Source of the DNA: a virus
Lineage: Duplodnaviria; Caudoviricetes
DNA length: 64,000 nt
Direction: 5' to 3' (one strand)
IMG/VR virus record: IMGVR_UViG_3300016484_000881
Span: 157 to 64,156 of that record
Below, piece after piece: positions 10,088 to 57,163 of the stretch. The notes under the pieces are model-generated. The model saw nothing but the letters and a program-made list of their open reading frames with translations, was not told where the DNA came from and searched no databases. Numbering within the stretch: position 1 is the stretch's first letter; each line of letters begins with the position of its first letter. Position numbers and translations under genes: made by a program.

Positions 10088-10837
10088 ATGTCTGAACCTA
10101 TCAAGTCCGTTCTTTTTAGCGGCAAGACCTACTCAGAAGCTGATCTTGCTAAGATGCAGGAAAAAGATCTTCTTGAACTTCGCAATCTTGTGGCTGTGAA
10201 TCTTGGCGCATCAAAGATCAATGCTTTCAAGGATCTCGAAGCTGCAAAGAAGCTGACCTGGAGTGCTTTGGTCAAATTCGCAGAATCAAGCGATGACGAC
10301 CTTGCCTCGAAAGAAACCAAGGCGGAAGCTAAGGAAAAGAAGGCCAAAGAAAAGAAGGAGAAGGTTCCTCCTGGATATCTGAAGTCTATTGTTCCTAAGC
10401 GGCCGACCAAGAAGCAGTTCTCCAAGATCAAGAAGCTGCGTAACCCGGTTGAGGGCAGTGATCGCTCGTTCGCTTGGCCAGACTACAAAGATGGTATGAC
10501 AGTTCTTGACACCATGCTTGATCCGAAGTTGCATCACGACAAGGTCTATTGGTGGGCAAGCCGAAACCCTCCCTATATTCAGTTGATCGAGCCAACTGAA
10601 GAAGAGTACCAAGCGGCTCTTGCTAAGTTCTATAAGGATCAGGGTATCCAGGATCCAGCCGCAGAACGTAATGCCAAGAAGGCTGCTCGCGCTAAGGAGA
10701 AGGAAGAGAAGAAGGCAAAGCGCGAGGCTGAAAAGGCCGCAAAGAAGGCTGAAAAGGAAAAGGCTTCTGAAGAAGCTAAGGCAAAGCGCGAGGCTGAGGA
10801 AGCCAAGACTGCCAAGCCAGTTCCGTCTGCTGCCTAA
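10088..10837 (+). CDS. Hypothetical protein with Lys/Ala/Glu-rich low-complexity tracts (possible DNA-binding)
   Basis: RBS GGAG; AKKAA/EKAAKK repeats; central YKDGMTV domain. Confidence 0.7.
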   Translation: MSEPIKSVLFSGKTYSEADLAKMQEKDLLELRNLVAVNLGASKINAFKDLEAAKKLTWSALVKFAESSDDDLASKETKAEAKEKKAKEKKEKVPPGYLKSIVPKRPTKKQFSKIKKLRNPVEGSDRSFAWPDYKDGMTVLDTMLDPKLHHDKVYWWASRNPPYIQLIEPTEEEYQAALAKFYKDQGIQDPAAERNAKKAARAKEKEEKKAKREAEKAAKKAEKEKASEEAKAKREAEEAKTAKPVPSAA

Positions 10838-10847
10838 GAGCAGCAAG

Positions 10848-11762: not shown

Positions 11763-11773
11763 GGAATAACTCA

Positions 11774-13027: not shown

Positions 13028-14106
13028 TGCGAGTCATTGAAGCAAGAAACGTTCATCAAGCTCTACCATTGGGCATGGGATTGTTGGTAGATCATGGAAT
13101 CTTTCGCGATAGCAGGAACGGTCAAGTTCTTGTTGCAGACGGTCCTGTGACCACTGTTTACGACAAGCCCAAGGAGAGGGTGATCTTCTGGCCTGAAAGA
13201 GACGCAAATCCATTCTTTCATTTCATGGAAGGATTGTGGATGCTCGCTGGGCGAAACGATGTGAAATGGATTTCTCAGTTCAGCTCAAACATCAAGAATT
13301 ACAGCGACGACAGGTTGACCTTTCATGGTGCCTACGGTCACAGATGGATCAATCACTTCAATAAGGAAGTGATTCTTGCAACCAAAGAGATTGATGGGGT
13401 TGCTGGTTCGACTTGGGTTCCATTCAATCAACTTGAAGCTATCGCTGAGATTCTGAAAAAGAACAAAGACGATCGTCGCGCTGTCCTTCAAATGTGGAAC
13501 GCCGAAGATGATCTTGGGAAAGAAGGTAAGGACTTCCCCTGTAATACACAGATCTACTTCAGTGTAGATGAAAAGAATCTTCTTAACATGAGCGTCTGTA
13601 ATCGTAGTAACGACATCATCTGGGGAGCGTATGGAGCGAATGCTGTTCACATGTCCATGCTTCAGGAATTTATGGCAGCCTGGATTGGGGTTGAAGTCGG
13701 TCGTTATTGGCAGATCAGCAATAACTATCATGCGTACACTGAAGTTTTTGAAAAGCATAAGAGTTTGATTTCAGATCGTCATATTGGTACGTTCGAAATA
13801 GATCCATATCAGTACGGACGCAAGGGAAGGCAAGCCGTCTCGCCGTTCCCAATGGTGAACAAGCCAGTTGATGTTTGGATGAGTGATCTAACTCTGTTCA
13901 TGGAACAAGGACCAGTGACTGGATTCAATGACGTATTCTTTCGTCGAGTAGTCAATCCAATCTGGAATTCGTGGTTTGCATATAAGAACAAAGAAAGCGG
14001 TAGTTATATTGAACAGGCTCTTGCTCATCTTGAAGGATGTGTGGCGACTGATTGGCAACTCGCTTGCAAAGAATGGCTTGAAAGAAGGAAGGATAAAAAT
14101 TCATGA
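13027..14106 (+). CDS. Thymidylate synthase-family dUMP hydroxymethylase
   Basis: DFPCN catalytic Cys; RSNDIIWGAYGAN with Asn (dU-specific position); RDANPFFH motif. Confidence 0.85.
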   Translation: MRVIEARNVHQALPLGMGLLVDHGIFRDSRNGQVLVADGPVTTVYDKPKERVIFWPERDANPFFHFMEGLWMLAGRNDVKWISQFSSNIKNYSDDRLTFHGAYGHRWINHFNKEVILATKEIDGVAGSTWVPFNQLEAIAEILKKNKDDRRAVLQMWNAEDDLGKEGKDFPCNTQIYFSVDEKNLLNMSVCNRSNDIIWGAYGANAVHMSMLQEFMAAWIGVEVGRYWQISNNYHAYTEVFEKHKSLISDRHIGTFEIDPYQYGRKGRQAVSPFPMVNKPVDVWMSDLTLFMEQGPVTGFNDVFFRRVVNPIWNSWFAYKNKESGSYIEQALAHLEGCVATDWQLACKEWLERRKDKNS

Positions 14107-14507
14107 AGATTTACATTGCTGCAAAATATGCTCGTAGGTACGAACTGAGATCTCTTGTTGAGAAATTGAAAGAAATCGGCCACGAAGTTACTTCTCAGTG
14201 GATTTACGATAGTGAACCAGAAAAAAGCATTAAAGAAGCTGCTGAGAGGGATATCAATGATGTTCTTGCTGCTGAATGTCTTGTTTTCATTGGTGAGCCT
14301 CAGGCTTCAGAGAATCGTGGTGGTGGTCGTTGGTTTGAATTTGGGTTTGCTTATGCTAAGGAGAAGAGGTGTATTGCAGTCTTGAGTATGGATCCATCCA
14401 AAGGTGGACACGACCATCTACCTATCGGTCATGAAAGCGTTTTTACTGCTCTTCTTTGTGTGGAGATAGTTCATAGCCAAGAAGAATTGTTAAGCAAACT
14501 TTCTTAG
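14103..14507 (+). CDS. Nucleoside 2-deoxyribosyltransferase-like protein
   Basis: KIYIAA, DINDVLAAECLV, EFGFAYA motifs. Confidence 0.65.
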   Translation: MKIYIAAKYARRYELRSLVEKLKEIGHEVTSQWIYDSEPEKSIKEAAERDINDVLAAECLVFIGEPQASENRGGGRWFEFGFAYAKEKRCIAVLSMDPSKGGHDHLPIGHESVFTALLCVEIVHSQEELLSKLS

Positions 14508-14511
14508 TCAA

Positions 14512-14599
14512 GGACGGGTGCTCGAGAGGTTAAAGAGGACAGACTGTAAATCTGTTGCACTTCGGTGCTACGAAGGTTCAAATCCTTCCCCGTCCACCA
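14512..14599 (+). tRNA. tRNA-Tyr(GUA)
   Basis: Acceptor GGACGGG/CCCGTCC + A + CCA; anticodon arm ACAGA-CTGTAAA-TCTGT; long variable arm GCACTTCGGTGC; T-arm GAAGG-TTCAAAT-CCTTC. Confidence 0.95.
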
Positions 14600-14611
14600 A
14601 AGGAGTTAAGC

Positions 14612-15163
14612 ATGAGTCATAACAGAGGTTGCTTTTTCTGTGGTCGCGATATATGGGAATATGATGGTTGTGATCATGGAGAGGACTGTGTCAAAAAGGA
14701 TTTTAGTAAAATGTTAGAGAAACCAATCAATACAGAATTTGTGAATGATCGTCAAGTTGGAGGAAACCACTACAAGACCTCTTATGAACATTGGGATTGG
14801 GTGATCGACAACAACATGGGATATCTTGAGGGTTGTGCAACGAAATACGTTTCTCGTTGGAGGAAGAAGAATGGTGTGCAAGATCTAGAAAAAGCTGCTC
14901 ACTACATTCAAAAAATAATTGAATCTTTTGAGAAAGGAAAATATCCCTCTGCTGATTCTCGAATCCGTGATCAGAATATTAAGGATAACGCTCTGAGATC
15001 AAATAAGTTTGACTTAGCAAATGAGCTGCAATACGAGGAAGGTCTTATTTGTTGGACACTTTCTAGTTGGCGAGAAATTGAATCCCTGCTGATTGCTCAG
15101 AAAATGGTGAATGCTTTGTTACAGACCGCAAGGGACGCCGCTGGTTTGCAAAGTAAGGGCTAG
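14612..15163 (+). CDS. DUF3310 (SaV-like, putative nucleotide kinase) protein
   Basis: QVGGNHY, YLEGCATKYVSRWRKKNGVQDLEKAAHY; RBS AAGGAG; track start 14555 falls inside the tRNA. Confidence 0.75.
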   Translation: MSHNRGCFFCGRDIWEYDGCDHGEDCVKKDFSKMLEKPINTEFVNDRQVGGNHYKTSYEHWDWVIDNNMGYLEGCATKYVSRWRKKNGVQDLEKAAHYIQKIIESFEKGKYPSADSRIRDQNIKDNALRSNKFDLANELQYEEGLICWTLSSWREIESLLIAQKMVNALLQTARDAAGLQSKG

Positions 15164-15302
15164 GCACCTATGCCCGGTGTGTGCTGGTTTTGCGCTTGTG
15201 GCGTGGCCGTAGGGCTTTGCAGCCCTGCCCTAGCCTAGTTGGTTAGTGGCAGCCACGCCGTAGCGCTCATTTTAATGGTTCTGTAAAAAGGAATAAAGTA
15301 GA

Positions 15303-22129: not shown

Positions 22130-22323
22130 TGCACTGCCAAATTTTCATAATTCTGTACATGTCCCTATCTTTGATAATTGCAGAGATTGGATTAAGATCA
22201 ACGGAAATAAAAATAGACAAAGAGATAATCTGGCTAACAGCACTCGTGATTCTGTTATTCTGCCAGATAGTCGTCTTATTTACAGGGCTGAAAATTTTGG
22301 TAAACCGCAGACACAAAAAATAG
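22129..22323 (+). CDS. Small membrane protein
   Basis: Two hydrophobic segments. Confidence 0.45.
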   Translation: MHCQIFIILYMSLSLIIAEIGLRSTEIKIDKEIIWLTALVILLFCQIVVLFTGLKILVNRRHKK

Positions 22324-22440
22324 GCTGTACAGCCTAGCAGCCACTAAGGGCTTGGCATAGGCAGCAGGGCAAAGGCTGTAGGGCTAGCCACAAAGGCTCG
22401 CTATAAGCCGTTTAAGTTACACAGGGTGCAAGTGCAAAAA

Positions 22441-22785
22441 ATGGCGACCAGTATTGAGGTAATAGCGAAAATTGTTGGGTTCATGGATAGACAACTTCTT
22501 TTAAATGAAGACATCTCAAACTCTTATCAAATTGAAGCAATTATCGTAGAACACCAGTTTGAAGATGGAGAGACATTCAATCTAAGAATCTCATCTGGGT
22601 TAGATAGCCTCACTAGAAAAGAAATCTGGCTCAATAAAGATCTTTTTATTGGAAAAAGAATAAAGTTCAAATGTCAGCCTTTTGATTTCTCTCTTCCCCG
22701 TTTTCCATTCTTCTTGGGTTTCGAAGATAAGATCGTCCTTCCAAAGCCAAAGAAAAAAGAAGTCATTCAAGGTGAATTATTTTAG
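22441..22785 (+). CDS. Protein resembling the C-terminal OB domain of ATP-dependent DNA ligases
   Basis: ISSGLDSLTRKEIWLNKDLFIGKRIKFK...PRFPFFLGF; no adenylation domain. Confidence 0.5.
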   Translation: MATSIEVIAKIVGFMDRQLLLNEDISNSYQIEAIIVEHQFEDGETFNLRISSGLDSLTRKEIWLNKDLFIGKRIKFKCQPFDFSLPRFPFFLGFEDKIVLPKPKKKEVIQGELF

Positions 22786-30659: not shown

Positions 30660-30837
30660 GGTTTAGCTGCAAATAGCATTTTTAAATGACCGTTTGCGGA
30701 CCATCAGAGTGGGGTTTGGCGCTGTTTTGGCGCTGGCTGGTATAGTGGGGGCCATGGCCCAAAAAGGCCACAGGCGCGCAAATTTGGGGTCTGGTTTTGG
30801 TGGTTTATAAGAAATCGGTCTCTTAGACAAAAAAGAC

Positions 30838-31580: not shown

Positions 31581-32018
31581 ATGAGACAAGAAGAACTTGA
31601 CGCCATCAAGGCGCGCAATGCAGCCCGGACGCAGGGCGTGTGGATATATCGTCCAGACGAATACGATGATTGGGGGTCAGTCAGGCTTGATATAGCAAAC
31701 GCAGATGGGTTCCGGCGCGTTGTTTGCCGCGCCAGCTACGATGCGGAAAAAACAAGCGCCGAACTCGATGAATACCGTCGCCGCAAAGATGATCCCAGCA
31801 AAGGCAATGGCCAGTTCATCGCCCACGCCAGCACTGACATTCCGGCCCTTATCGCTGCCCTTGAAGCATCACAAGAACGAGTGAAGGCACTGGAAGAAGC
31901 GTTGAAGCCCTTCGCTGATGGATACGCCATGGCGTGTCGTGAAGGCGTTTCAATTCGGGATGTGATTGGTTTGTCTGACCTTCGCCGCGCCAAAACAGCA
32001 CTGGACGCCACCCCATGA
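31581..32018 (+). CDS. Ead/Ea22-like hypothetical protein
   Basis: ELDAIKAR...FIAHASTDIPALIAALE pattern. Confidence 0.55.
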   Translation: MRQEELDAIKARNAARTQGVWIYRPDEYDDWGSVRLDIANADGFRRVVCRASYDAEKTSAELDEYRRRKDDPSKGNGQFIAHASTDIPALIAALEASQERVKALEEALKPFADGYAMACREGVSIRDVIGLSDLRRAKTALDATP

Positions 32019-32386
32019 CCACACACCACACACCGACGCCTTGGCGCACAGTTGTACTGAAAGACAAGCGCCATCGCATGACTGTCATTATGGCGGGGGG
32101 CAGCTTTGACAAAGCGGTGCAGGTCGGGTGCTGTTACGCAAACCACGTTTCGCACGAAGAAGCAGCCGCCAACGCTGCCTTTATCGTCCGTGCCGTCAAC
32201 TCTCATGACGCGCTGGTTGAGGCCTTGGGGCCAACTCTCAACGCCAAGTCGCTTAAGCTGGTCACTGAGCACGTGGAAGTGTTTAGGGCGATGGGGGATA
32301 TTGGCTTGGCCATTGCACTTGAAATGCTGCTCAAAAACCACGCCAAGCGCGTTGCCGCTCTCGCTCTTGCCAAGGGAGAGAAGTGA
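32015..32386 (+). CDS. Hypothetical protein
   Basis: HTPTPW...ANAAFIVRAVNSHDALVEAL, common phage motif. Confidence 0.7.
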   Translation: MTTHHTPTPWRTVVLKDKRHRMTVIMAGGSFDKAVQVGCCYANHVSHEEAAANAAFIVRAVNSHDALVEALGPTLNAKSLKLVTEHVEVFRAMGDIGLAIALEMLLKNHAKRVAALALAKGEK

Positions 32387-32634
32387 TGGCCGCTATCACA
32401 TATCACGACGCCACGCGCGTTTTCCGGGTGATGGGCCATGTTGTTGGCTGGACATGCGAGCCGGACGGCGGGTGGGCGTTTCAACTGTTCGGGCTTGGCG
32501 TTTGGCGGATGAGCCGTGACGAACCTGTCGGCTGGACGATTGGTCCGTTTGTGACCCGAAACAATGGTCTCACCGCCACGTGTTCAATCTCATTCATCCC
32601 CGCTTGGCACAATCTTTTGAAAGCAAAACTATGA
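32383..32634 (+). CDS. Hypothetical protein
   Basis: Overlap-coupled ORF. Confidence 0.55.
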   Translation: MMAAITYHDATRVFRVMGHVVGWTCEPDGGWAFQLFGLGVWRMSRDEPVGWTIGPFVTRNNGLTATCSISFIPAWHNLLKAKL

Positions 32635-32837
32635 CGAATATCCCGATATGGAAAATTGCAGGCCTCAACATTCGCACCCGCGAGCGGCGCGGATACGTCA
32701 AGGAAGTTCAGGGCTACACATCGTGGACTGAATACCAAGTGATCAAGGGGCGCACCATATTGCAGCGCTTTGACACCATGGAAGCGGCTGAACGGTTTGC
32801 GACCGAGCGCGTCGGCGGCGTGTGGAGGAAACCATGA
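32631..32837 (+). CDS. Hypothetical protein
   Basis: ATGA overlap at 32631. Confidence 0.55.
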   Translation: MTNIPIWKIAGLNIRTRERRGYVKEVQGYTSWTEYQVIKGRTILQRFDTMEAAERFATERVGGVWRKP

Positions 32838-33013
32838 CACCCACCGACAAACTCGAACTGGCAACCGTTCTGGAAAACATCCGCACGTCATTCCTGCGCA
32901 TGACAGACCATGAACAGCGCATTGAACAGATCGCCCGCTCTCTCACAACCCCTCCTGTCATTGAAGGTGGACCATGGGACGGCAGGGCAGAACTCAGGGA
33001 GATAGCGAAATGA
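32834..33013 (+). CDS. Hypothetical protein
   Basis: RBS GGAGG, ATGA overlap. Confidence 0.6.
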   Translation: MTPTDKLELATVLENIRTSFLRMTDHEQRIEQIARSLTTPPVIEGGPWDGRAELREIAK

Positions 33014-33249
33014 GCGACAAGATTAAAGTCAACATTTATTCGGCGGGGCCACTTTTTATCTCTGCATCCCCAGATGAGTTTGGCCGAGTTTTTTCTGCGA
33101 TGTCGTCTGTCGATCAGGTGAACGTTCTCCGATCAATGATCAAACACATGGAACCTCACAAAACGCAGTGGGACTATATTTCAATTGAACTGGACCGCCC
33201 TGAAAACGCTGATGTGTTGCACGCTTTTCGGCAAATGGTGCAATCATGA
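33010..33249 (+). CDS. Hypothetical protein
   Basis: ATGA overlap. Confidence 0.6.
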   Translation: MSDKIKVNIYSAGPLFISASPDEFGRVFSAMSSVDQVNVLRSMIKHMEPHKTQWDYISIELDRPENADVLHAFRQMVQS

Positions 33250-33464
33250 TCACGCGGGAACAAGCGATCAAAGCTCAGCTTGAATTGGACGAAGCCAGCA
33301 AAGCAGCACTGCTTTCTTTTTGGCGCACAGAAACGACCGGGAACGAAATGCACGACCCCGCCAACAGATATCACTCAACAAAGCTCTTTGAGAGCCTCTC
33401 CAAGGCTCTCGCCGTCCTTGGCTACACAATGACGCCAGCGCCTACACAAGAGGCGCAGCCATGA
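33246..33464 (+). CDS. Hypothetical protein, paralogue of 31306-31578
   Basis: Shared SFWR and LGYTMTP.PT blocks. Confidence 0.65.
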   Translation: MITREQAIKAQLELDEASKAALLSFWRTETTGNEMHDPANRYHSTKLFESLSKALAVLGYTMTPAPTQEAQP

Positions 33465-33522
33465 GCGCCCGCATGTCAATCCCTGACTGGTGTGACGAAA
33501 TCCCTTTTGACAACGGAGCAAG

Positions 33523-33837
33523 GTGATGAATGAAGTAACGCAGATTGATACCGGGGCAACACTGGTAACACCCGTCGCAAATACTCCCATGGCCATCATT
33601 GAACGGGCCATCGCGTCCGGCGCATCACCAGAAACGCTTTCCAAGCTCATGGACCTGCAAGAGCGCGACAGGGCAAGGGCGGATGCACTGGAAGAAGCGG
33701 CCCTTGTGATTGAGAACGGGCAAGAATGCTACCATTCCGAAGATCAGTCCTACCATATTGAACCGCGAGGTTCCGGAAACCAGATCGGATTGGCGTACGT
33801 CACAGCCATCCGTGCATTGAAGGACGCCAAGCCATGA
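33523..33837 (+). CDS. Hypothetical protein
   Basis: MAIIERAIASGAS...LSKLMDLQER N-terminus resembles ERF-family leader helices. Confidence 0.55.
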   Translation: MMNEVTQIDTGATLVTPVANTPMAIIERAIASGASPETLSKLMDLQERDRARADALEEAALVIENGQECYHSEDQSYHIEPRGSGNQIGLAYVTAIRALKDAKP

Positions 33838-34187
33838 AACAATTATCCTGCATCGAGATTACCTTTCCTGAGCCTGTTGAATTTACACAGCAAGACCAAA
33901 GCGACTTGTTGGCGTTGGTGACGCGCATCACAGATCGCTATTGCGCCACCCATCCGGGGCGCACGATGTGGGCTTTCGGTGTCGGCCAAAAGATGCTCAG
34001 CAACCCATTCCTGACGGGTGATGATCAGCCCTTGGAATTTGACGCCAGAGTTTTTTCAATCGAGTGCAGCGAACGCGCCGACTACCAATGGCCATGCACC
34101 AAATGCGGGAAACCGCAGGGCGATCACAAGGGGCACATCGTCAGTCCGCCAGCAGGTGATTGCGATTTCACGGTGGAAAACGCATGA
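33834..34187 (+). CDS. Hypothetical protein with CxxC motif
   Basis: ATGA overlap; CTKCG. Confidence 0.6.
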   Translation: MKQLSCIEITFPEPVEFTQQDQSDLLALVTRITDRYCATHPGRTMWAFGVGQKMLSNPFLTGDDQPLEFDARVFSIECSERADYQWPCTKCGKPQGDHKGHIVSPPAGDCDFTVENA

Positions 34188-34513
34188 CCGTCACACCAGA
34201 ACAGCGAGACGCCGCGTTTCAGGCGATGTTACAAGAGTGGAACAATCACGTTCGCCGCCTTAACTTTCATTGGTGCCCATCCAATGAAAAGGCTTTCATT
34301 CTTCAAAACGCCCTCGACGCCCTCATTGCCCTTGGCTGGCAGTTAGTGCCAGAGGGAAGCGTGGTGGTGCCGAAGGAGCCGACAGCCCAAGAGTTTGACA
34401 CCATCCGTGAGATCATCAAGTCCACAAAGTGGCTCGGAATGCCGGGTGGACGGACTATGACAGAAGCAACACGCGACGTTTACCGCGCCATGATCGGCGC
34501 AAAGGGAGAGTGA
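34184..34513 (+). CDS. Hypothetical protein
   Basis: GWQLVP...VPKEPT...YRAMIGA motif frequent in phage ORFs. Confidence 0.6.
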   Translation: MTVTPEQRDAAFQAMLQEWNNHVRRLNFHWCPSNEKAFILQNALDALIALGWQLVPEGSVVVPKEPTAQEFDTIREIIKSTKWLGMPGGRTMTEATRDVYRAMIGAKGE

Positions 34514-34689
34514 CCATGCTGGACAAAATGAACGAAGCTATCGAACACGACACAAAGGATGACGCGACACCAGACTGGGCGATATGGAAGGGCGAAGGCC
34601 CGGCTCCCGCGTATTGGTACGCCGTCAATCCAGACACCAAGGAGCACACGAAAGTCTATCGCAGTTACGAGGACTACGTGGACGACTGA
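34510..34689 (+). CDS. Hypothetical protein
   Basis: GTGA overlap, RBS GGGAG. Confidence 0.55.
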   Translation: MTMLDKMNEAIEHDTKDDATPDWAIWKGEGPAPAYWYAVNPDTKEHTKVYRSYEDYVDD

Positions 34690-34890
34690 GACACACGATT
34701 CACCTCTCTCCGCTCATGTGGTATAGAGGGGATGGAAGGGCGGCGTGGAAGGACACGCATCGTAAGAGGAAGATGGAGCGCAACAACTTACGAATTAGCA
34801 ATCCAGCAGCGCGCGAAACAGAGAGCCATAGCCGATTATCACATATCGGCCCTTTCCAATTATTTTAATCTCTAGATGAAACAAAAGAGC

Positions 34891-39399: not shown

Positions 39400-39721
39400 C
39401 AAAGCATATCTTGGGCTCAAGTCTCAAGGATTCAAGCAATCCAGGAGACGAGTTAGCTCCCAAATTAGGACGCTGTGCTCCTACAGAGGTGGCGAAGGAC
39501 GGAAATGTGCCGTCGGCTGGCTCATACCAGATTCTATTTACAAGCCATCTTTCGAGCTTATGAGCCTATCTAAGCTGATGAGAAAACTCGGCGTTTCTGA
39601 TAGTCTGGATTCTTTTGTGTACTCATTGAGGTTGGCTCACGATCAAAGCCACTTTCCTGAAGATATGAGTGAGGAACTTGTGGCTATAGCAAAGAAACAC
39701 AATTTGAAGATTCCTCAGTAA
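39377..39721 (+). CDS. Hypothetical protein, tandem paralogue 2
   Basis: Same blocks as previous gene. Confidence 0.75.
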   Translation: MNKQQIFDKAYLGLKSQGFKQSRRRVSSQIRTLCSYRGGEGRKCAVGWLIPDSIYKPSFELMSLSKLMRKLGVSDSLDSFVYSLRLAHDQSHFPEDMSEELVAIAKKHNLKIPQ

Positions 39722-40305
39722 ATATTCTTTTCAAGGAGAAGACGGAACAGGGCGTGATCTTCATCGCGCCCTTGATCTTTTAAAACTGCCAATTCCTCGA
39801 GGAAGTCCTTATGAGTTTCGCATGGACTTCCCATTTCCTTGGCGACCCTTGGAACCCAGAGAAGCATTAGATGCTCGAGTCCATAGACGATCTCCAGTGG
39901 GTGTGCCCATCTCCAGCAATAGTAACTGTTTGGATCCGTCTTTGTTGGATTCACCTGCTTATGAGGGCTGTAAGGCAAGATCATTCTGAGTATCCTGCCA
40001 ACACGTGGAGAGAGTACTGAGGGAAAATCCTCAAACAGATGTTCAACGAGAACCTTCTTAGAAATGAAGCCTGAACTTGGAGATCTCTTAGCTTCCTTGT
40101 TGAACCATTGGTAGAGTCTCACTTCTGCGATAATGTTCTTTGGATCAAAGACAGCGTGCATCCCTCTCTTTTCACGCGGATCACCTAAAATGAATATTGG
40201 TCCTTCATAATATCCACCAACTTTGTTTTTCACAGGGTTGTACTGATCACGGTAATGCAGCCTCAGGTCTCCGACGGTTTTCGGTGTTTTGTGGGTGATT
40301 TGCAT
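39715..40305 (-). CDS. Hypothetical protein; the only convincing minus-strand gene
   Basis: 196-aa ORF with RBS AAGGAA, no competing + strand ORF, converges on + strand early genes. Confidence 0.7.
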   Translation of the reverse strand: MQITHKTPKTVGDLRLHYRDQYNPVKNKVGGYYEGPIFILGDPREKRGMHAVFDPKNIIAEVRLYQWFNKEAKRSPSSGFISKKVLVEHLFEDFPSVLSPRVGRILRMILPYSPHKQVNPTKTDPNSYYCWRWAHPLEIVYGLEHLMLLWVPRVAKEMGSPCETHKDFLEELAVLKDQGRDEDHALFRLLLEKNIY

Positions 40306-40525
40306 GTTTTGAGGTTCCTTATGGAAGTAAGTAGAGTCAGATGGTCTGTTGTTAATAGAGTAATATCTAAATAAGTCCTTGTAAAGGCTAAGTTTTCTCG
40401 GATAAATATCAGGATAGCAGGATATTGGGTTGTGACTTTGGCAGCCACAAACCGGGGGCTAGGGGTAAGGTGGTGGTGGGTAGCCCGGTGCGGTGCAAGC
40501 TGTGGCTGGTAGTAGTGTCTTTATT

Positions 40526-40551
40526 TAATATAATAATATAATAATATAATA
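40526..40551. repeat. AT-only tandem repeat (TAATATAA) x3
   Basis: taatataataatataataatataata. Confidence 0.8.
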
Positions 40552-40709
40552 GAAATAAGACCTTGTTTTATATGAGTTTTTTCATATTAGTTTGGAAGAT
40601 TTGTGACTCTACTAAAATCGCCCTTGTTTTTCTGATTCTCTTGGGATAGTTTGTGATATTGGGAAATCTATCTCTGTTTCTCTCACGCGTGCGCAGGAAT
40701 CTATCACAA

Positions 40710-41354
40710 ATGGCCGATACAAAAGACCTCAAGGAATACGGATCTAAGCGGGGCGTTTTCCGGGCTGTCCCTGTCCAAATGTTCGACGGGACCTGGAGAA
40801 CGCAGATCATCACCGGTCATAAGTTCACTGACCGAGAGAAGGAGATATTCCTAAATGAATATTCCAAGCATGGGAGAAAGGGAGCTGCGGCTCGTATCGC
40901 TGGGGTATCAACAAAGACAATCTCTGATCATGTTAGCAAAGATCCTCATTTCGCCATGGCCTGTCTAGAAGCGGAGAATAACTATCGTGAAAGATTGGTA
41001 GAGCATGTCCAGAATCTCGTGTTCGAGGGAACAGAGAAAATCTCCTATGATCGCACCGGGAATATCGTATCGAGAGAGCAGATTTATCCAATCCCTCTTA
41101 TCCTCGCCGAGATGAAGAAGGTCGACGATGGATACCGAGATAAGAAGGAAGTGACAATGAATGTCAACGGCGGCGTTCTCGTCGCTCCATCAAACATGGA
41201 GTCCATCGAGGATTGGGAGAAGAAGTTCGGTTCCTCTGGGCCAAAGATAGAAGGACAGATTGTGACCGATTCATTGACCGAGTCCGTCTCAGATGAAGAT
41301 GATGAGAATGATGGAGAATCTCCAGCTGAAGAGATAGAAGCTGAGAATGAATGA
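40710..41354 (+). CDS. terS: Terminase small subunit (putative)
   Basis: HTH-like EIFLNEYSKHGRKGAAARIAGVSTKTI, YRDKKEVTMNV, acidic tail; typical position. Confidence 0.7.
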   Translation: MADTKDLKEYGSKRGVFRAVPVQMFDGTWRTQIITGHKFTDREKEIFLNEYSKHGRKGAAARIAGVSTKTISDHVSKDPHFAMACLEAENNYRERLVEHVQNLVFEGTEKISYDRTGNIVSREQIYPIPLILAEMKKVDDGYRDKKEVTMNVNGGVLVAPSNMESIEDWEKKFGSSGPKIEGQIVTDSLTESVSDEDDENDGESPAEEIEAENE

Positions 41355-41482: not shown

Positions 41483-41542
41483 TGACCGAGTGACCGATTG
41501 ATAATCTCTCTGAGACAGATTGACCGATTGATAATCTCTCTG
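41483..41542. repeat. Direct repeat TGACCGATTGATAATCTCTCTG x2 plus TGACCGA copy
   Basis: 22-mer at 41491-41512 and 41521-41542; TGACCGA also at 41483. Confidence 0.9.
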
Positions 41543-41822
41543 TCTTTCCATCTCTCCATCCTTCTCTCCGTCTTTCGTTCTATCCTCTTATCATCTCTCT
41601 TCGGTCCAGTCATCGGTAAGTATTTATACCTAGTGTAGGCATAAATACCTATTGGCATTTCGCGCTCACCTAGCACAAAAATCCACCCTTGGCAAGCCCT
41701 AAGCCATGCGCTCGGCGCAACCCTGCCCCTAACATTATGCAATTGTGCGCATAACACGTTGCTGTATTGTTGGCCTATGGCGCAAGCATGGTGCTAGCGC
41801 TACTAACACAAAGGTAAATACC

Positions 41823-42212
41823 ATGGCTAACAATAACACTGCCCGTAAGCCTGTTGCCGCTGCTGCCCCTGTACAGGCTGCCCCCATTGCTACCGCTGCC
41901 CCTGTACAGGCTGCCCCGGCTGCTGCCCCTACTGTTACCAGTGTAGCAGCGGGTGCGCTGGTACAGCTTGGTACACCATGGGTGGTGCGCCCTGCCACAC
42001 ATCGCGCCTATGCGCAAGCGCAGTTTGCTTGGCTGCAAAAGCACAACCCCAAAGGCTTTACCCTTGCACAGGCAAGGGAAGCCCTTGTGCTTAACAGTGC
42101 AGGTGCACCAACCATTGCCTCGCCTAAGGGCGGTTGGCAAAAGCACAACATGCCAACATGGGCACTTGCGCAAGGCTGGCTGCAACCCTTTGGCACCAAG
42201 GCCAAGGCCTAA
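41823..42212 (+). CDS. Basic Ala/Pro-rich protein (129 aa, no Asp, one Glu) encoded in a TC/GA-free island
   Basis: RBS-like AAGGT, upstream TTGTGC-N16-TATTGT, downstream hairpins; internal 23-bp repeat at 41862 and 41895. Confidence 0.7.
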   Translation: MANNNTARKPVAAAAPVQAAPIATAAPVQAAPAAAPTVTSVAAGALVQLGTPWVVRPATHRAYAQAQFAWLQKHNPKGFTLAQAREALVLNSAGAPTIASPKGGWQKHNMPTWALAQGWLQPFGTKAKA

Positions 42213-42228
42213 CACCGCACAACACTAG

Positions 42229-42299
42229 GCTAGGGCTGCAAAGCCCTAGCTAACACCTGCACTAGGGCAGCCACCCCGCCCCGTCAACGGCTGCCCTAG
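42229..42299. terminator. Two tandem GC-rich hairpins after the D/E-free gene
   Basis: GCTAGGGCT-GCAA-AGCCCTAGC (42229-42250); CTAGGGCAGCC...GGCTGCCCTAG (42262-42299). Confidence 0.55.
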
Positions 42300-42367
42300 C
42301 GTAGGGCGGGGACTAGCCCCCTAGATCGACAGTCCACTCTCATCAAAGCGTTCAATAGGGATCAGCA

Positions 42368-50280: not shown

Positions 50281-51174
50281 ATGTCTCTGATCATTGAGAC
50301 TGGCTCTGGTGTTCGCGGGGCAAATTCATACGTTAATGTTGCGTATGTCACTTCCTATCTGACGACCAGAAATCGTCATGTGGCTTGGTCTGCTCTTTCT
50401 ACACAAGTGAAAGAAGCTGCCATTGTTGCCGCGACTGATTATCTTGAGAAAAGATTCTCTGATAAATTCAAGGGATCTCCTGCATTTTATTTTGATGCCT
50501 CTTATGCTGAGGCAATACTCTCTTTCTCTGGGCAACCTTCAAATGGAGATCTTCTAACCATCGGGGATTACCAGTACAAATTCGTCAGTTATCTTTCTGG
50601 TTCTTCCCTAGAAGTTCTTATTGGTGGCTCTACAACGAATACTGTTACGGCTTTGGAAGCTGCACTAAATGGGGCAGCAGGGCAGGGGGTTTTATATGGC
50701 CCTACAAGCCCCATAAATAGCGCTGTAGTGGCAAAGCAAGCGGGCATGGCCCTAACCCTTATGGCTACTGCCCCCGGCACAGGCGGCGTTCTAACGCGTC
50801 TGGAGGGTACAGTCACAAATATGTCTATAACGGCTTTTTATGGTGGTCTTGATGGTGGTCCACAATCTCTATCTTGGCCGAGAAACAGAGCCTACGATAA
50901 TGGTATTCTCATTGAAGGAATTCCGGATCGTCTAAAACAGGCTATCTCAGAATACGCAGTTCGAGCATCTTCAGCTGAACTTCTGCCTGATCCAGATGTT
51001 GATTCTTATGCAGGTGCAATCAGTGAGCGTAGAGCGGAAGTTGGTCCAATTCGTGAGCAGATTAAATATTCTGGTTCGACGGGTTTTTCAGTTTTCTCAC
51101 CGTACCCATCAGCAGACAAACTTCTTCGACCTCTTCTAGTTTCTTCAACTGGAGGAAGAGTTTACCGTGGCTGA
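50281..51174 (+). CDS. Head-tail adaptor (DnaT-like SSB fold family) with internal insertion
   Basis: GANSYVNVAY...AATDYLE N-part and QSLSWPR...IPDRLKQAISEYA C-part separated by about 125 aa. Confidence 0.7.
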   Translation: MSLIIETGSGVRGANSYVNVAYVTSYLTTRNRHVAWSALSTQVKEAAIVAATDYLEKRFSDKFKGSPAFYFDASYAEAILSFSGQPSNGDLLTIGDYQYKFVSYLSGSSLEVLIGGSTTNTVTALEAALNGAAGQGVLYGPTSPINSAVVAKQAGMALTLMATAPGTGGVLTRLEGTVTNMSITAFYGGLDGGPQSLSWPRNRAYDNGILIEGIPDRLKQAISEYAVRASSAELLPDPDVDSYAGAISERRAEVGPIREQIKYSGSTGFSVFSPYPSADKLLRPLLVSSTGGRVYRG

Positions 51175-54339: not shown

Positions 54340-54821
54340 TGGGGTCAATGTTTCAATTTTCTAGGAACATAAGAACACTGGCATCGAGAATTGAAAATAA
54401 TTCTGCCAGCTTGATTCGTCGTGTTTCTAAGAGAACACTGAAGAAATTGGTGAATGGAACTCCAGTTGATACTGGTGAAGCTCGTTCTAACTGGCGAGTT
54501 TCTCTTGGCAACCCAACAAGATCAGTCATTCCTCCTCATGCTCCTGGAAAGCATCTTGGGATTCACGAAAAGTCCAACGCCAAAGCTACTATTCAAGAGG
54601 GATTTCAAACGATTGAAAAATTAAAATCTAATTCAAAGGGTGGCGCTGTTCAATCTCTGTACATCACAAACTCTATCCCCTTTCTCGATCGTCTGAGGAA
54701 TGGTTATTCCGCTCAGCAGCCCAATGATTGGGTTGAAGAAGCTTTCGTAGATGCGAAGATAGACATCAGCAAAGTCAGTCTTCTAACAACTAAGATTTCT
54801 GATGATGAGGATGACGAGTAA
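54339..54821 (+). CDS. Tail completion/neck protein (HK97 gp10-like)
   Basis: TPVDTGEARSNW, ITNSIPF...LRNGYSAQ. Confidence 0.75.
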   Translation: MGSMFQFSRNIRTLASRIENNSASLIRRVSKRTLKKLVNGTPVDTGEARSNWRVSLGNPTRSVIPPHAPGKHLGIHEKSNAKATIQEGFQTIEKLKSNSKGGAVQSLYITNSIPFLDRLRNGYSAQQPNDWVEEAFVDAKIDISKVSLLTTKISDDEDDE

Positions 54822-57163
54822 TGGTCACTCAAGCAATCAACATCATTATTTCTGCAACCGGAGTTCGAACAGTTGTTCGTTCTCTTAATGATATTGGTCA
54901 TGCTGCTGATAGGTCAACTCGCGGTCTTTTTCTACTTCAGCGAGCTCTATACACAATCGGTGCTGGTGCTGCTGTCAGAAGTCTTCAAACTATGCTGGAC
55001 ACTCTGACAAATTTTGAGAACAGAATTGCTCTAGTTACAAAAAATTCAGCTGAGCTGAATGCTGTACAGAATGAACTTCTTGAGCTCAGCACAAGGACAC
55101 GTTTGAATTTTGAGAACACTGCTGAAGTTTATTCAAGAACCGCACTCGCAGTCAGAGAACTTGGTATTTCTCAACTAGAAACTCTCCAATTTACAGAATC
55201 CTTGAATAAAGCGACCATTTTGTCTGGGGCCAATGCCCAAGAAGCTCATGCAGCTCTTATTCAGTTATCACAGGGTATGGCTTCTGGAAGGCTGAGCGGA
55301 GACGAACTGAGATCAGTCTTGGAACAACTTCCTTACGTTGCGGATATCATCGCAAAGTCCCTGGGTGTTACTAGAGGAGAATTGAGAAAACTCGGCTCTG
55401 AAGGCAAGATTGGTCCTAACGAAATTCTGAAAGCATTCAGAGAAGCTAGAGTAGAGATTAATGAAAAGTTCGGAAACACTATTCCAACTATTGAGCAAAG
55501 TTTTTCTGTGTTGAGAACTTCAGTTCTTTCTGTTCTTGATCAGTTTGATGATTTTACTCGTTCTAGCGAAAAAGTAGCAAGATCAATTATTTCTCTGGCT
55601 ACTGGAATAAGGGAATACCTTATTCCAACTTTGACAGAACTCGCTAGAAGATATCCCGCCATGACTAACGCTATATCTCAGGCTGGAGAAGAGCTTAGTA
55701 ATGGCCTCAAGAGAGACGTTCAGGATGCAGAGAAACTTCTTAATCTTAGTCTGAAACTTGCGGACGCTTATGATTTGATTGTCAAAGGTGGCTTCACCAA
55801 TGATGCAATCGGCGACGGAATGATTGAATTCTTCAAAACTGATCTAGGCGGGGGAGATTCAGATCGTCTTGCCACTCTCTGGGCTGGAGTTCTAGCAGAA
55901 GCAACTCAAAAAACGAAAGACAAATTCACTGATCTTGGTGGTGTGGATGGATCTTACTTCTTAGACGTCTTTATTCCCCAAAGTTCAGAAGATCTTGATT
56001 TTTCAGAAAAACTCAAGAATCTTAAACAAGAGAATGGACTATTGCGGGTCAACGCAAATGAAAGAGCCAGACTTACAGAAATATATAAAATTGAGAATGA
56101 TCTCAAAAGAGAGCTCACTGATAAAGAAATCAGTTCTGTTCGTAAGTTGGTTGATGAAAATTTGGCTCTTAAAGAATTAGAAAAGCAATCTGAAAAAGAA
56201 AAAGGTTTTCAGAAAGATGTCTCTAATCTTGTATTTGAAAATGAAGTTCTGAAAGTCAATAAGAACGAAAGAAAAGCTCTGATAGAGATTCACAATCTTG
56301 AAGAAAGTGTTGGCAGAACTCTTTCTTCTCGAGAGAAAGACCGCATCAAGAATATAATTGATCAGAATATCGCTCTAGAAGCATCTTCCGAGGCTTATGA
56401 AAAGATTAATCAGCCGCTTGATACATATATATCTTCTGTTCGTGTTCTGAACGAACTTCTTCTTGCTGGTAAGATCAATCAAGATCAGTTTAATCTGTCT
56501 CTTCAAAGTGCAAGAGTTGAATATCTTAATGGCCAGAAGGACATAGCCTCTGGATTTGAAAGAGGTTTTCTGAAAGTTCTTTCTGAAACAAGTGACTACG
56601 CAACTATCATGGAAGGCATCGTTTCTAAATCTTTTGATGGTATTTCAGACGCGATTGCTGATCTAGCTATTTCTGGAAAAGCTGATTTCAAGAGTTTGTT
56701 TAATTCGATTGAAAAAGATCTGATTAAGTTCATGGTCTCAAAAGCTTTCCAGAACTTCTTTGGTGGATTCTCTGGTGGATTCAGTCAAGGCTCATCTTCT
56801 GGAGGAGGTTTTGATTTCCTCAACAGGATGATTAGCTCAATATTTGCTGGTCGCAGGGCTTTGGGTGGAGGTGTTCGAGCTGGTGAAGGAGTTGTCGTGG
56901 GAGAGCACAGACCAGAACTTTTCATTCCAGATCGTCCTGGAACTGTTGTTCCAAAAATTGGTGAGGGTGGAGGACCAGTGATCATCAATATGTATGGTCA
57001 GGGTAATCCTTCGGTCAACACGAAAAAAGGATCCAGTGGAGGCTTAGAGATTGATGCTGTTATGGATCAATCAATTGCTAACGCTATTGGAAATCCAAAG
57101 AGCCAGACAGCTAAAGTACTGAGGCACAAATATAGTCTAACTCAAACAGTAAAGGCAAGGTAA
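54821..57163 (+). CDS. Tape measure protein
   Basis: QLSQGMASGRLSGDELRSVLE tape-measure N-domain; RALGGGV...VVGEHRPELFIP C-terminus. Confidence 0.92.
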   Translation: MVTQAINIIISATGVRTVVRSLNDIGHAADRSTRGLFLLQRALYTIGAGAAVRSLQTMLDTLTNFENRIALVTKNSAELNAVQNELLELSTRTRLNFENTAEVYSRTALAVRELGISQLETLQFTESLNKATILSGANAQEAHAALIQLSQGMASGRLSGDELRSVLEQLPYVADIIAKSLGVTRGELRKLGSEGKIGPNEILKAFREARVEINEKFGNTIPTIEQSFSVLRTSVLSVLDQFDDFTRSSEKVARSIISLATGIREYLIPTLTELARRYPAMTNAISQAGEELSNGLKRDVQDAEKLLNLSLKLADAYDLIVKGGFTNDAIGDGMIEFFKTDLGGGDSDRLATLWAGVLAEATQKTKDKFTDLGGVDGSYFLDVFIPQSSEDLDFSEKLKNLKQENGLLRVNANERARLTEIYKIENDLKRELTDKEISSVRKLVDENLALKELEKQSEKEKGFQKDVSNLVFENEVLKVNKNERKALIEIHNLEESVGRTLSSREKDRIKNIIDQNIALEASSEAYEKINQPLDTYISSVRVLNELLLAGKINQDQFNLSLQSARVEYLNGQKDIASGFERGFLKVLSETSDYATIMEGIVSKSFDGISDAIADLAISGKADFKSLFNSIEKDLIKFMVSKAFQNFFGGFSGGFSQGSSSGGGFDFLNRMISSIFAGRRALGGGVRAGEGVVVGEHRPELFIPDRPGTVVPKIGEGGGPVIINMYGQGNPSVNTKKGSSGGLEIDAVMDQSIANAIGNPKSQTAKVLRHKYSLTQTVKAR

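Follow-up and report, generated by a model that had tools for sequence, protein, structure and literature searches.

A gene cassette almost without TC and GA dinucleotides between the terminase genes of a 64-kb siphophage

A 696-bp island in this phage genome is purged of TC and of its complement GA, and the purge is specific to this dinucleotide pair. The island carries a compact expression cassette whose gene encodes a basic 129-aa protein nearly devoid of acidic residues. The purge is common to about 15 distant relatives, and the protein shares a domain with McrB restriction GTPases. A link between the island and thymidine hypermodification is plausible from the gene content of the phage.

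The window, i.e. the whole 64,000-nt stretch of DNA that was analysed, belongs to a 64-kb siphophage that is distant kin of the Pseudomonas M6/YuA-like phages. Its terminase large subunit is 58% identical to the counterparts in these phages. No match in 50,697 GenBank phage records was found by DNA similarity for the island with the surrounding 12 kb, nor by tblastn for the island protein and the glycosyltransferase-like protein described below, and the clade has no isolate among these records. An Rfam search gave a tRNA-Tyr as the sole match.

Extent, specificity and anatomy of the island

At the genome rate of 0.156 TC/GA per position, about 109 of these dinucleotides are expected in the 696-bp zone. 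Eight were found, at 41660, 41666, 41682, 41712, 42002, 42078, 42120 and 42284 (binomial P ~1e-39). The GC content of the island is 0.58 versus 0.43 for the genome, and the base composition of the island alone predicts 84 TC/GA in the zone. The core at 41714-42310 contains four TC/GA (P ~8e-38) and the open reading frame three. An earlier sequence-only reading had confined the island to this core. The last four positions listed above, the core count and the lack of any TC/GA from 41714 to 42001 were given correctly there, but the depleted zone is slightly larger and starts at 41615.

The 290-bp gap between 41712 and 42002 is the longest TC/GA gap of the genome (geometric E = 4e-18). Among the ten strand-symmetric dinucleotides, outlier gaps were observed for GA/TC only. 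All four TCN contexts are depleted, with 45 observed versus about 1197 expected when the strict islands were pooled. A narrower trinucleotide motif was ruled out, because depletion extends to every TCN and NTC context and is slightly stronger at TCA and TCT. The non-coding flanks of the open reading frame are likewise purged. In the bulk genome TC/GA is overrepresented (observed/expected 1.2-1.5), and its codon preference favours codons containing them, such as TCT, GGA and AGA. At least six shorter TC/GA-free stretches occur elsewhere in the genome, and several of these minor stretches sit in Ala-rich low-complexity coding segments.

The cassette and its neighbourhood contain the following features.

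40653-41354, terS-like gene (phrog_4044, terminase small subunit, E = 3.7e-26)
41274-41353, + strand, densest GA tract of the genome (19 GA in 80 nt), acidic tail at the 3' end of the terS-like gene
41484-41542, + strand, two 29-nt direct repeats with a 30-nt period, 93% identical, TC/GA-rich, ending in GATTGATAATCTCTCTG
41535-41614, + strand, densest TC tract of the genome (25 TC and 0 GA in 80 nt), abutting the island
41615-42310, unstranded, TC/GA-poor island
41617-41651, unstranded, pair of 16-19-nt repeats, TAAGTATTTATACCTA / TAGGCATAAATACCTA, at the left edge of the island
41743-41770, + strand, predicted sigma-70-like promoter TTGTGC-N16-TATTGT, without GA/TC
41780-41800, + strand, stem-loop in the 5' UTR with stem GCGC/GCGC and loop AAGCATGGTGCTA, conserved on a by-eye reading of the alignment
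41810-41815, + strand, ribosome-binding site AAAGGT, a GA-free version of the GGAG type
41823-42212, + strand, coding sequence of the 129-aa protein (pI 11.6, net charge about +10)
41854-41919, + strand, 33-bp tandem duplication in the coding sequence (85% identity), encoding the Ala/Pro repeat AAAPVQAAP
42228-42251, + strand, hairpin 1, 10-bp stem and GCAA loop, 16 nt past the stop codon
42256-42305, + strand, hairpin 2, 11 + 5 bp stem and C-rich 16-nt loop ACCCCGCCCCGTCAAC

A protein such as the terS-like product may bind the direct repeats at 41484-41542. The neighbouring TC tract compares with a genome mean of 5.7 TC per 80 nt (sd 2.3), and in four complete relatives too the TC density of the gene strand reaches its maximum for the whole genome 0.1-1.2 kb upstream of the island. 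The relatives have their own phage-specific repeats or palindromes at the left edge, such as a 42-nt unit present three times in L017 and a GCAATAATGTTGCG-like unit present four times in L020. These left-edge repeats look like operator or iteron sites.

The promoter put forward by the sequence-only reading is weak and falls below the threshold of a consensus scanner, but GA-free hexamers stand at the same place in the relatives, where TTTACA, TTGGCT or TTGCCA is followed after 16-18 nt by TAAGTT, TAAGGT or TATATA. A palindrome lies within the promoter spacer in several of them. In the 5' UTR, the stem varies among relatives (GGCC/GGCC, GGGC/GCCC, GGGT/ACCC) and the loop consensus AAGCAATAACGCA is kept; RNAalifold did not recover this stem-loop from the poor alignment of the 5' UTR. 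The ribosome-binding site had been called atypical, consistent with AAAGGT here versus GGAG upstream of 15 of the 39 other genes, and its AAAGG is conserved in relatives.

The two hairpins that had been noticed downstream of the gene fold at -56.8 kcal/mol (z = -5.9). Relatives form a hairpin with differing stem sequences at the position of hairpin 1, and keep a CCACCAAC-type loop in hairpin 2. The hairpins in the window are strong but lack a T-run, and a consensus promoter/terminator scan of the window did not report them. In L008, L011 and L020 a T-run follows hairpin 2, which suggests that hairpin 2 is probably a terminator. The 16-mer of hairpin 1 recurs inverted at 15210-15225.

Composition and homology of the 129-aa protein

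The protein contains no Asp and one Glu, versus 16.6 Asp plus Glu expected per 129 residues. Two of its three Ser codons are AGT and one is TCG, all Phe codons are TTT and all Ile codons are ATT, as the sequence-only reading had stated. When the same protein was recoded with the codon usage of the genome, 29.8 ± 3.8 TC/GA were obtained versus 3 observed. None of 20,000 trials of synonymous resampling had fewer than 15, and the minimum possible is 1. This simulation rules out a purely protein-level explanation. Together with the purged non-coding flanks and the persistence of the ban at 43-59% protein identity, it strongly supports the earlier proposal that selection at the DNA level set the composition of the protein.

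Residues 1-40 form a disordered Ala/Pro-rich tail, and residues 41-125 a compact alpha/beta domain that is winged-helix-like in an AF2 model (pLDDT 81-95). The top structural matches are winged helices, all of them weak (JetA/MukF, Z 5.1-5.5; ORC/Cdc6, H1 and MCM, Z about 4), and Foldseek with the predicted domain gave no match at E < 1e-3. Searches of the island protein against Pfam, PHROGs and PADLOC, and a profile search against PDB sequences, found no match. The protein atlas contained unnamed viral clusters only, plus weak structural neighbours among nucleic-acid enzymes. The protein most likely binds DNA, possibly modified phage DNA, as indirectly supported by the pI of 11.6, the charge of about +10 and the occurrence of the domain as an insert in a DNA-translocating restriction GTPase.

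The C-terminal domain is homologous to this McrB insert, about 80 residues being aligned at about 43% identity. Searching the whole library returned P0038 (E = 2e-6) and P0040 (E = 2e-5), and tblastn returned L047 (E = 3e-14). In the McrB proteins of L047 (Rhodobacterales), P0040, L016 and P0038 the homologous insert separates Walker A from Walker B; these proteins have AAA_5 and McrB_lid domains and a PF10117 McrC neighbour. Insert ('specificity') domains are known in the McrB GTPases of McrBC type IV restriction (PMC11090510). Unlike the McrB insert, the phage protein is a stand-alone protein of 129 aa without an ATPase, and no AAA_5 or McrC gene is nearby. It shares the insert domain and is no restriction component. 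In an unrooted tree the McrB inserts form one clade among phage sequences.

Homologous domains outside such islands, i.e. the McrB inserts and a few phage copies, have 6-10 Asp/Glu per 86 residues, indicating that the fold tolerates these residues. The sequence-only reading had held that homologues of the same composition from non-modifying phages would point to protein-level selection; the opposite was found, the homologues being rich in Asp/Glu. Its idea of an anti-defence role gains some footing from the homology with the McrB insert.

Conservation of the cassette among relatives

About 30 metagenomic clusters contain homologues of the island gene. In nearly all phage relatives a TC/GA-free island of 0.4-1 kb surrounds the gene and includes a GA-free sigma-70-like promoter, and the 5' UTR and the two hairpins are conserved. 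Whether homologues are also free of TC had been a question of the sequence-only reading, and in nearly all phage relatives they are: the gene has 0-1 TC/GA in L001, L002, L005, L008, L014, L015, L017, L019, L020 and L021 (43-59% protein identity), and the flanks of these ten have 13-19 TC/GA per 100 nt. GA/TC is also the one dinucleotide pair with outlier gaps in each of five complete genomes from the clade, where E ranges from 6e-8 to 5e-54. The M6-like phage PAE1 has no island for any dinucleotide. In every relative examined, the locus is between the terS-like gene and terL. The islands of some relatives contain additional small TC/GA-free genes, some of them divergently oriented, which suggests an expression module rather than a single DNA site.

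Among the relatives that retain both kinase and glycosyltransferase-like gene, some have a relaxed ban, namely L010, L018, L024 and L011, with 5-11 TC/GA in the gene. Loss of the kinase was ruled out as the explanation of the relaxed islands, because both strict and relaxed genomes have it. The phage homologue in L025 has fully normal TC/GA and lies in a TC/GA-rich contig. Downstream of the island, relatives have a conserved sigma-70-like promoter, TTGTCA-N17-TACAAT, whose first hexamer contains TC.

Hypermodification genes and possible explanations of the purge

The phage carries a thymidine-hypermodification cluster, in which a glycosyltransferase-like gene lies together with the following two genes.

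10620-11762, 5-hmdU DNA kinase (5-HMUDK; PF18723, E = 6.8e-36, 124 bits versus a cut-off of 25)
13027-14106, dUMP hydroxymethylase-like gene of the thymidylate synthase family (PF00303, E = 3.5e-21; phrog_5131, E = 6e-123)

The thymidylate-synthase-like protein is 47% identical to Orf53 of PAE1. The glycosyltransferase-like gene (417 aa) gave sub-threshold matches only (PF00534, E = 1e-3; PDB GlgA, E = 0.09); it is kept in four relatives and missing from PAE1. No amino-acid:DNA transferase (aGPT-Pplase) gene was seen in the modification cluster. The kinase was present in all five near-complete relatives searched (G001-G005), and the cluster of kinase and glycosyltransferase-like gene in the four checked (G001, G002, G003 and G005). 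7-Deazaguanine at GA, as in phages iggy and CAjan, was ruled out by the lack of a detected TGT/DpdA gene in the genome, and DNA methylation by the lack of a detected methyltransferase of three families. Two transcription regimes were also considered, and neither a phage RNA polymerase nor a phage sigma factor was detected.

Hypermodification through 5-hmdU and a 5-hmdU DNA kinase occurs in Pseudomonas M6, Salmonella ViI, Delftia PhiW-14 and Bacillus SP10, and in phages of the M6/ViI type only a fraction of the thymines is modified (PMC5889632, PMC8989533, PMC6449724). The restriction-resistant sites of M6, ViI and PhiW-14 have TG/TC in common, which indicates T before G or C as the modified context (PMC6449724). 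The 5-hmdU conversion is sequence-specific, and as of 2018 the motifs that direct thymidine hypermodifications were described as not yet known (PMC5889632). The window phage resembles the M6/ViI type in its predicted thymidylate-synthase-like dUMP hydroxymethylase and PF18723 kinase. Unlike M6, it has the glycosyltransferase-like gene in place of the M6-type amino-acid transferase, PLP and radical-SAM genes. The motif-free island is a further difference, since none is reported for those phages and PAE1, a relative of M6, is without one; our literature search found no published account of a motif-free or modification-free zone in hypermodified phages.

The explanation towards which we lean, on the gene content and the distribution of TC, is that the sequence of the island exempts it from the TC-directed thymine hypermodification carried out by the phage itself. 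Thymine would be replaced by 5-hydroxymethyluracil, and the 5-hmdU DNA kinase and then the glycosyltransferase-like enzyme would decorate the bases preceding C (5'-TC-3'). Enrichment of TC on both strands of the bulk genome would maximise protection. One self-contained cassette, comprising the upstream repeat sites, the sigma-70-like promoter, the structured 5' UTR, the open reading frame and two terminator hairpins, would be purged of TC on both strands. As the purge would leave no thymine to be decorated, the cassette would remain ordinary DNA, usable by host RNA polymerase and sequence-specific regulators whatever the modification elsewhere. The price would be a protein whose gene avoids GAN codons and nearly all TCN codons. 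Both the TC context of the modification and exemption as the selected trait are our inference.

Several points count against exemption. All other genes must also be transcribed from modified DNA, so that modification would be no absolute block, and to our knowledge host polymerase transcribes T4, SPO1 and other hypermodified phages without such islands. The relaxed ban in L010, L018, L024 and L011 despite a retained kinase and glycosyltransferase-like gene argues against it, as do the normal homologue in L025 and the TC-bearing TTGTCA promoter downstream in relatives. The assignment of the glycosyltransferase is weak. The suggestion that the gene is the first to be ejected has lost ground, because the related Mesyanzhinovviridae are reported to have circularly permuted genomes packaged by headful, and a fixed entering end may not exist (PMC11946847).

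In a further, doubtful proposal the 129-aa protein would read hypermodified TC sites, coat the chromosome and shield it against McrBC-type enzymes, which would use the same domain as a sensor. The TC-free gene, promoter and terminators would then be the one unit that is not bound, silenced or attacked. The gene could start an infection from a fully modified genome and stay expressed as the DNA gets coated, and the densest TC tract beside the island could be a nucleation or autoregulatory site. A platform for DNA transactions is another possibility, although on balance an unlikely one: the island would serve as an origin of replication together with the gene of the initiator, or as the pac region where packaging starts, and sequence-specific proteins would have to recognise it on parental or concatemeric DNA that is fully modified. 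The gene would be located there because its protein tolerates the constraint, or would be the initiator itself. The layout is like that of an iteron replicon, with iterons, an AT-rich region, an operator-bearing promoter and a winged-helix Rep gene. The phage-specific repeats or palindromes upstream of the gene are followed by an AT-rich stretch in L002, L008 and L023, the weak fold matches include the winged helices of ORC/Cdc6 and MCM, and the conserved locus between terS-like gene and terL is flanked by direct repeats and the densest TC tract. However, binding sites take tens of base pairs, not 0.4-1 kb with a coding sequence and terminators, and the extra small genes in the islands of relatives suggest an expression module. 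The protein is a single small domain, in contrast to two-domain Rep proteins, and origin recognition is usually the task of a primase-helicase of the type that this phage encodes. As for packaging, the terS-like gene of the relatives is 1.3-2.3 kb away with other genes intervening, and the repeats that would be the pac candidates, at 41484-41542, abound in TC/GA.

The purge may instead evade another reader of TC/GA, such as a host or phage nuclease, a TC-specific cytosine deaminase or a DNA-binding silencer, which the cassette must survive before protection is established. Deaminases with a TC context and readers of modification in a dinucleotide context exist, the ban is symmetric on both strands in coding and non-coding parts, as for a reader of double-stranded DNA, and the product is related to a domain of a type IV restriction enzyme. 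We give this little credence, as the remaining genome is enriched rather than depleted in TC/GA and we know of no nuclease with so short a specificity. Outside the cassette a harmful reader would have to be disarmed, and this once more requires modification at TC. Selection on the RNA, by which the transcript would avoid GA/UC to escape an endoribonuclease or to keep its fold, agrees with a highly structured transcript with a conserved 5'-UTR stem-loop and 3' hairpins. It is very improbable, because in the window, L002, L014 and L015 the purge extends 130-650 bp beyond the promoter-like site on its upstream side, and because it covers divergently oriented small genes in relatives, and is equally strict for both complementary members, which fits duplex DNA and not one RNA strand. 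It is hardly credible that the purge is a by-product of selection for a basic Ala-rich protein, of low-complexity sequence or of recent horizontal transfer from a source with another composition. The protein is indeed Ala/Pro-rich and basic, the island is GC-rich, and several minor islands are in Ala-rich low-complexity coding segments. Such a by-product is contradicted by the synonymous resampling, by the excess that the base composition of the island predicts, by the restriction of outlier gaps to GA/TC and by the Asp/Glu-rich composition of unconstrained homologues. Moreover, the non-coding flanks and the AT-rich island parts of L002 and L008 are purged too, and the trait is common to relatives at about 50% protein identity with conserved synteny.

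If exemption is true, the target context of a hypermodification can be read from the genome sequence, as a dinucleotide enriched everywhere but in the purged cassette. Hypermodification would then hamper some DNA transaction enough for phages to carve out exempt zones, at the cost of a protein family that evolved without aspartate and glutamate. This would be an unusually clean natural case of a DNA-level constraint overriding protein chemistry. Such islands would also be places where the DNA of hypermodified phages is still accessible to polymerases, restriction enzymes, Cas nucleases and cloning. The homology with the McrB insert ties the cassette to type IV restriction and offers a shared, testable module for both sides.

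The purge is like the avoidance of restriction sites and other short motifs, in which selection on a DNA word on both strands escapes a DNA-reading enzyme and constrains codons. The differences are that the word avoided here is a dinucleotide, that the avoidance is local to one cassette while the word is enriched elsewhere in the genome, and that its strength has cost a protein family two amino acids. The phage itself probably encodes the enzyme that is evaded. The 0.3 (ocr) region of T7 and the first-step-transfer region of T5 are leading early regions that act before other DNA is exposed, and the injected IPI* of T4 blocks the type IV enzyme GmrSD. The window cassette is similarly a small gene unit with its own candidate host-type promoter and a possible anti-restriction role. 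In contrast to it, these systems work through the sequence in which DNA enters or through injected protein rather than through the purging of a motif, and by analogy with the Mesyanzhinovviridae the clade of the window phage probably uses headful packaging and lacks a fixed leading end (PMC11946847). TF1 of Bacillus phage SPO1 and the linker-histone-like proteins also offer a comparison, as the window protein is a small, basic, putative DNA-binding protein, of the abundant type, from a phage with predicted 5-hmdU-derived DNA, and joins a winged-helix-like globular part to an Ala/Pro/Lys-rich tail. TF1 has an HU fold, with no relationship in sequence or fold to the window protein.

TC/GA depletion of the island and the level of selection

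The virus record is a single contig of 64,156 bp, nearly all of which is covered by the window, and almost all genes are carried by the plus strand. TC and GA were over-represented genome-wide (observed/expected 1.32 and 1.23; about 94 TC/GA per 600 bp). The 696-bp island at 41615-42310, which holds a 129-aa ORF, contained 8 TC/GA (41660, 41666, 41682, 41712, 42002, 42078, 42120 and 42284), versus about 109 expected at the genome rate and 84 from the island's own base composition (binomial P ~1e-39). The segment 41712-42002 was the longest TC/GA-free gap of the genome (geometric E = 4e-18), and none of the nine other strand-symmetric dinucleotide classes gave an outlier gap. When ORFs of 80 or more codons were compared, ORF 41745/41823-42212 had 0.006 TC/GA per position versus 0.10-0.21 in all others, except a 91-codon alternative frame within the same island (41953-42228, 0.011 per position).

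The coding sequence was resampled 20,000 times with the amino acids fixed and codons drawn from the genome's own usage. The expected number of TC/GA was 29.8 ± 3.8 and no trial fell below 15, versus 3 observed; the possible minimum is 1, imposed by the single Glu. TCT, GGA, AGA, CGA and similar TC/GA codons, favoured by the bulk genome, were avoided by the island gene. The flanks were also depleted, both the 210 bp upstream (5 observed versus 33 expected) and the 98 bp downstream (1 versus 15). Selection on the island works at the DNA and not at the protein, as the sequence-only reading had proposed. Its description of codon use and ribosome-binding site in this ORF was also correct.

Cassette anatomy and conservation among relatives

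Features of the cassette and its upstream region
41274-41353: genome's densest GA tract, at the 3' end of the terminase small subunit (terS)-like gene
41484-41542: two 29-nt direct repeats
41535-41614: densest TC tract of the genome, 25 TC and 0 GA in 80 nt versus a mean of 5.7 (sd 2.3)
41617-41651: repeat pair, replaced in relatives by phage-specific repeats or palindromes of their own
41743-41770: promoter candidate TTGTGC-N16-TATTGT, sigma-70-like, GA/TC-free
41780-41800: 5'-UTR stem-loop; loop kept among relatives, stem sequence variable
AAAGGT: ribosome-binding site
41823-42212: coding sequence of the island protein
42228-42251: hairpin 1, present in relatives with different stems
42256-42305: hairpin 2; CCACCAAC-type loop kept in relatives, followed by a T-run in three of them

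The two hairpins together reached -56.8 kcal/mol (z = -5.9). Promoter-like hexamers of the relatives were TTTACA, TTGGCT or TTGCCA with TAAGTT, TAAGGT or TATATA, and the spacer often contained a palindrome. As a whole, the cassette resembles a self-contained transcription unit with its own regulation. In each of the four complete relatives, too, gene-strand TC density reached its genome-wide peak 0.1-1.2 kb upstream of the island. Another sigma-70-like promoter is common to relatives' loci L011, L014, L019, L020 and others; it lies about 150 nt beyond the island's downstream edge, just past the putative terminator. Its -35 hexamer contains TC (TTGTCA-N17-TACAAT in L011, for example), and the window has no obvious counterpart.

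Two independent protein searches gave about 30 homologue clusters, nearly all metagenomic (100-170 aa, 43-59% identity), and at least 25 loci were fetched for comparison. Ten of them were strict islands with 0-1 TC/GA in the gene (L001, L002, L005, L008, L014, L015, L017, L019, L020 and L021). In these, the gene sits in a TC/GA-poor 0.4-1.1 kb between flanks of 13-19 TC/GA per 100 nt; the L001 island has 944 bp with zero TC/GA. Pooled, the strict islands contained 45 TC/GA versus about 1197 expected, and the depletion spans all four TCN and all four NTC contexts. Some relatives carry extra small TC/GA-free genes within the island, several of which encode hydrophobic proteins. The gene order is kept: a minus-strand gene and the terS-like gene come first, the island gene follows after 0.5-2.5 kb, and 1-6 kb of small ORFs separate it from the terminase large subunit gene (terL).

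In the window's genome and four complete relatives, outlier gaps were found only for GA/TC, save one AA/TT gap in relative G002 (E = 6.5e-6), and the largest GA/TC gap was always at the island gene. The M6-like Pseudomonas phage PAE1 had no such gap for any dinucleotide. Our literature search found no description of such motif-free islands, and similarity searches of GenBank phage records indicated a clade without an isolate.

The island protein and McrB-type homologues

The island protein has a pI of 11.6. In its AlphaFold model (37 sequences), an Ala/Pro tail is disordered up to residue 40, and residues 41-125 make up a domain predicted with confidence (pLDDT 81-95). Invariant residues in the conserved C-terminal domain of the homologues were R61, L88, P101, G104, H108, N109, W113 and W119. 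Foldseek returned nothing significant, and fold searches gave weak matches only, mostly winged helices (JetA/MukF kleisin, Z 5.1-5.5; ORC/Cdc6, MCM, linker histone and RiPP recognition elements, Z ~4). The modelled domain is probably winged-helix-like and DNA-binding.

The same domain was also found inside McrB-type AAA_5 GTPases, inserted between Walker A and Walker B.

McrB-type proteins carrying the domain
L016 (903 aa) and P0038: McrB-type homologues
P0040: McrB-type protein that has a McrB_lid domain and lies next to a PF10117 McrC
L047: 998-aa McrB-type protein of a Rhodobacterales genome, followed by McrC

A McrBC census regards GTPase-domain inserts as probable specificity domains (PMC11090510). 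The 86-residue domain has 7-10 Asp/Glu at recurring positions in McrB proteins, where island versions have Ala or Gln. Certain short phage homologues are also Asp/Glu-rich, and their genes are not purged. The L025 gene has 16 TC/GA per 100 nt; L027 is partly purged. Judged from these sequences, the ban on Asp/Glu is not intrinsic to the fold. In a domain tree, McrB inserts formed one well-supported clade, and Asp/Glu-rich forms arose several times among Asp/Glu-free phage forms; because this tree is short and unrooted, we claim no direction of transfer. In the Rhodobacterales MAG (L047:770-9716), a 1089-aa protein that combines RNase-H-like and SF1-helicase domains comes first, then the insert-bearing McrB and then McrC, an arrangement that looks like a defence island.

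Thymidine-hypermodification genes and other TC/GA-free stretches

TerL is 58% identical to that of the Pseudomonas phages PAE1 and MP1412 and of other Yuavirus members (Mesyanzhinovviridae). Replication genes comprise helicases, ribonucleotide reductase, family A DNA polymerase, primase and a clamp-loader-like gene.

Modification locus
10620-15163 (10.6-15.2 kb): thymidine-hypermodification cluster with 5-hmdU DNA kinase (PF18723), 417-aa glycosyltransferase-like gene (matches all sub-threshold), thymidylate-synthase-like gene, deoxyribosyltransferase-like gene, tRNA-Tyr and DUF3310 protein

The tRNA-Tyr (14512-14599) and the annotated start of the DUF3310 ORF overlap. M6-like phages have an amino-acid transferase, PLP and radical-SAM set, whereas this cluster has the kinase and the glycosyltransferase-like gene, which had no match in GenBank phages. 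Each of the five near-complete relatives that were searched carries the kinase. By tblastn, four of four complete relatives have both the glycosyltransferase-like gene and the island gene, and PAE1 lacks both, a co-occurrence that amounts to one phylogenetic contrast. Since neither TGT/DpdA nor DNA methyltransferase (three families) was found in the window's genome, its only recognisable DNA-modifying system acts on thymine. T7-type RNA polymerase and sigma factor were not found either.

5-hmdU in DNA is converted to hypermodified base or thymidine "in a sequence-specific fashion", by motifs "not yet known" in 2018 (PMC5889632). In M6, ViI and PhiW-14, the sites that resist restriction have TG or TC in common, which implicates a context preference of the kinase (PMC6449724). 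Our data fit an exemption from TC-directed thymine hypermodification that is encoded in the sequence itself. The bulk genome maximises the motif, which is kept out of one cassette and of a few short stretches between genes or in linkers, and the only recognisable modifier acts on thymine, in a context that published data put at T followed by G or C. The main points against this exemption are that every other gene is expressed from modified DNA and that relaxed lineages retain the modification genes.

As the possible reason for such an exemption, we rank first that host polymerase and regulators could use the cassette unhindered, either early in infection or all through it; this may be linked to the island product if it binds modified DNA or counters McrBC-type restriction. 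A platform for an origin or for packaging ranks second, and escape from another TC/GA reader third. The earlier suggestion of a first-ejected gene is weakened, because the related family was reported to have circularly permuted genomes and headful packaging (PMC11946847).

Another seven TC/GA-free stretches are shorter, at 83-144 bp (2114-2258, 2872-2967, 15134-15267, 22310-22446, 30707-30790, 40434-40552 and 50656-50790). Six hold a gap of at least 81 nt, the chance length at E = 0.01; the exception is 2872-2967 (gaps of 63 and 32). They are hairpin-rich intergenic regions or Ala/Pro-rich linkers of the endolysin (1454-2431) and head-tail adaptor (50281-51174). The stretch between the DUF3310 and DNA polymerase genes (15134-15267) keeps its position in two complete relatives (G003:C1:1580-1702 and G001:C1:17869-17960), and each of the three copies forms long GC-rich hairpins. 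Its 16-mer TAGGGCTTTGCAGCCC (15210-15225) is the exact reverse complement of 42233-42248 in hairpin 1. The octamer GCAGCCAC has 7 copies versus 1.2 expected from shuffles (15249, 22337, 26174, 30481 on the minus strand, 40441, 42267 and 59850 on the minus strand), four of which are within TC/GA-free islands.

The window's own tape-measure gene (54821-57163) has no TC/GA-free stretch; those of four relatives have one of 96-170 bp in an Ala/Gln-rich repeat segment.

Tape-measure TC/GA-free stretches
G003:C1:23873-24043
G005:C1:5394-5490
G001:C1:41986-42110
G002:C1:11914-12031

A divergent control region (40305-40653) separates the only long minus-strand gene (39715-40305, kept in relatives) from the terS-like gene, and contains a TC/GA-free island and an AT-only repeat (TAATATAA)x3. 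The block of small ORFs at 31581-34868 has raised GC (0.53-0.58) and, islands aside, the genome's lowest TC/GA density (0.10-0.14 per position); it may represent early genes or a mosaic insertion.
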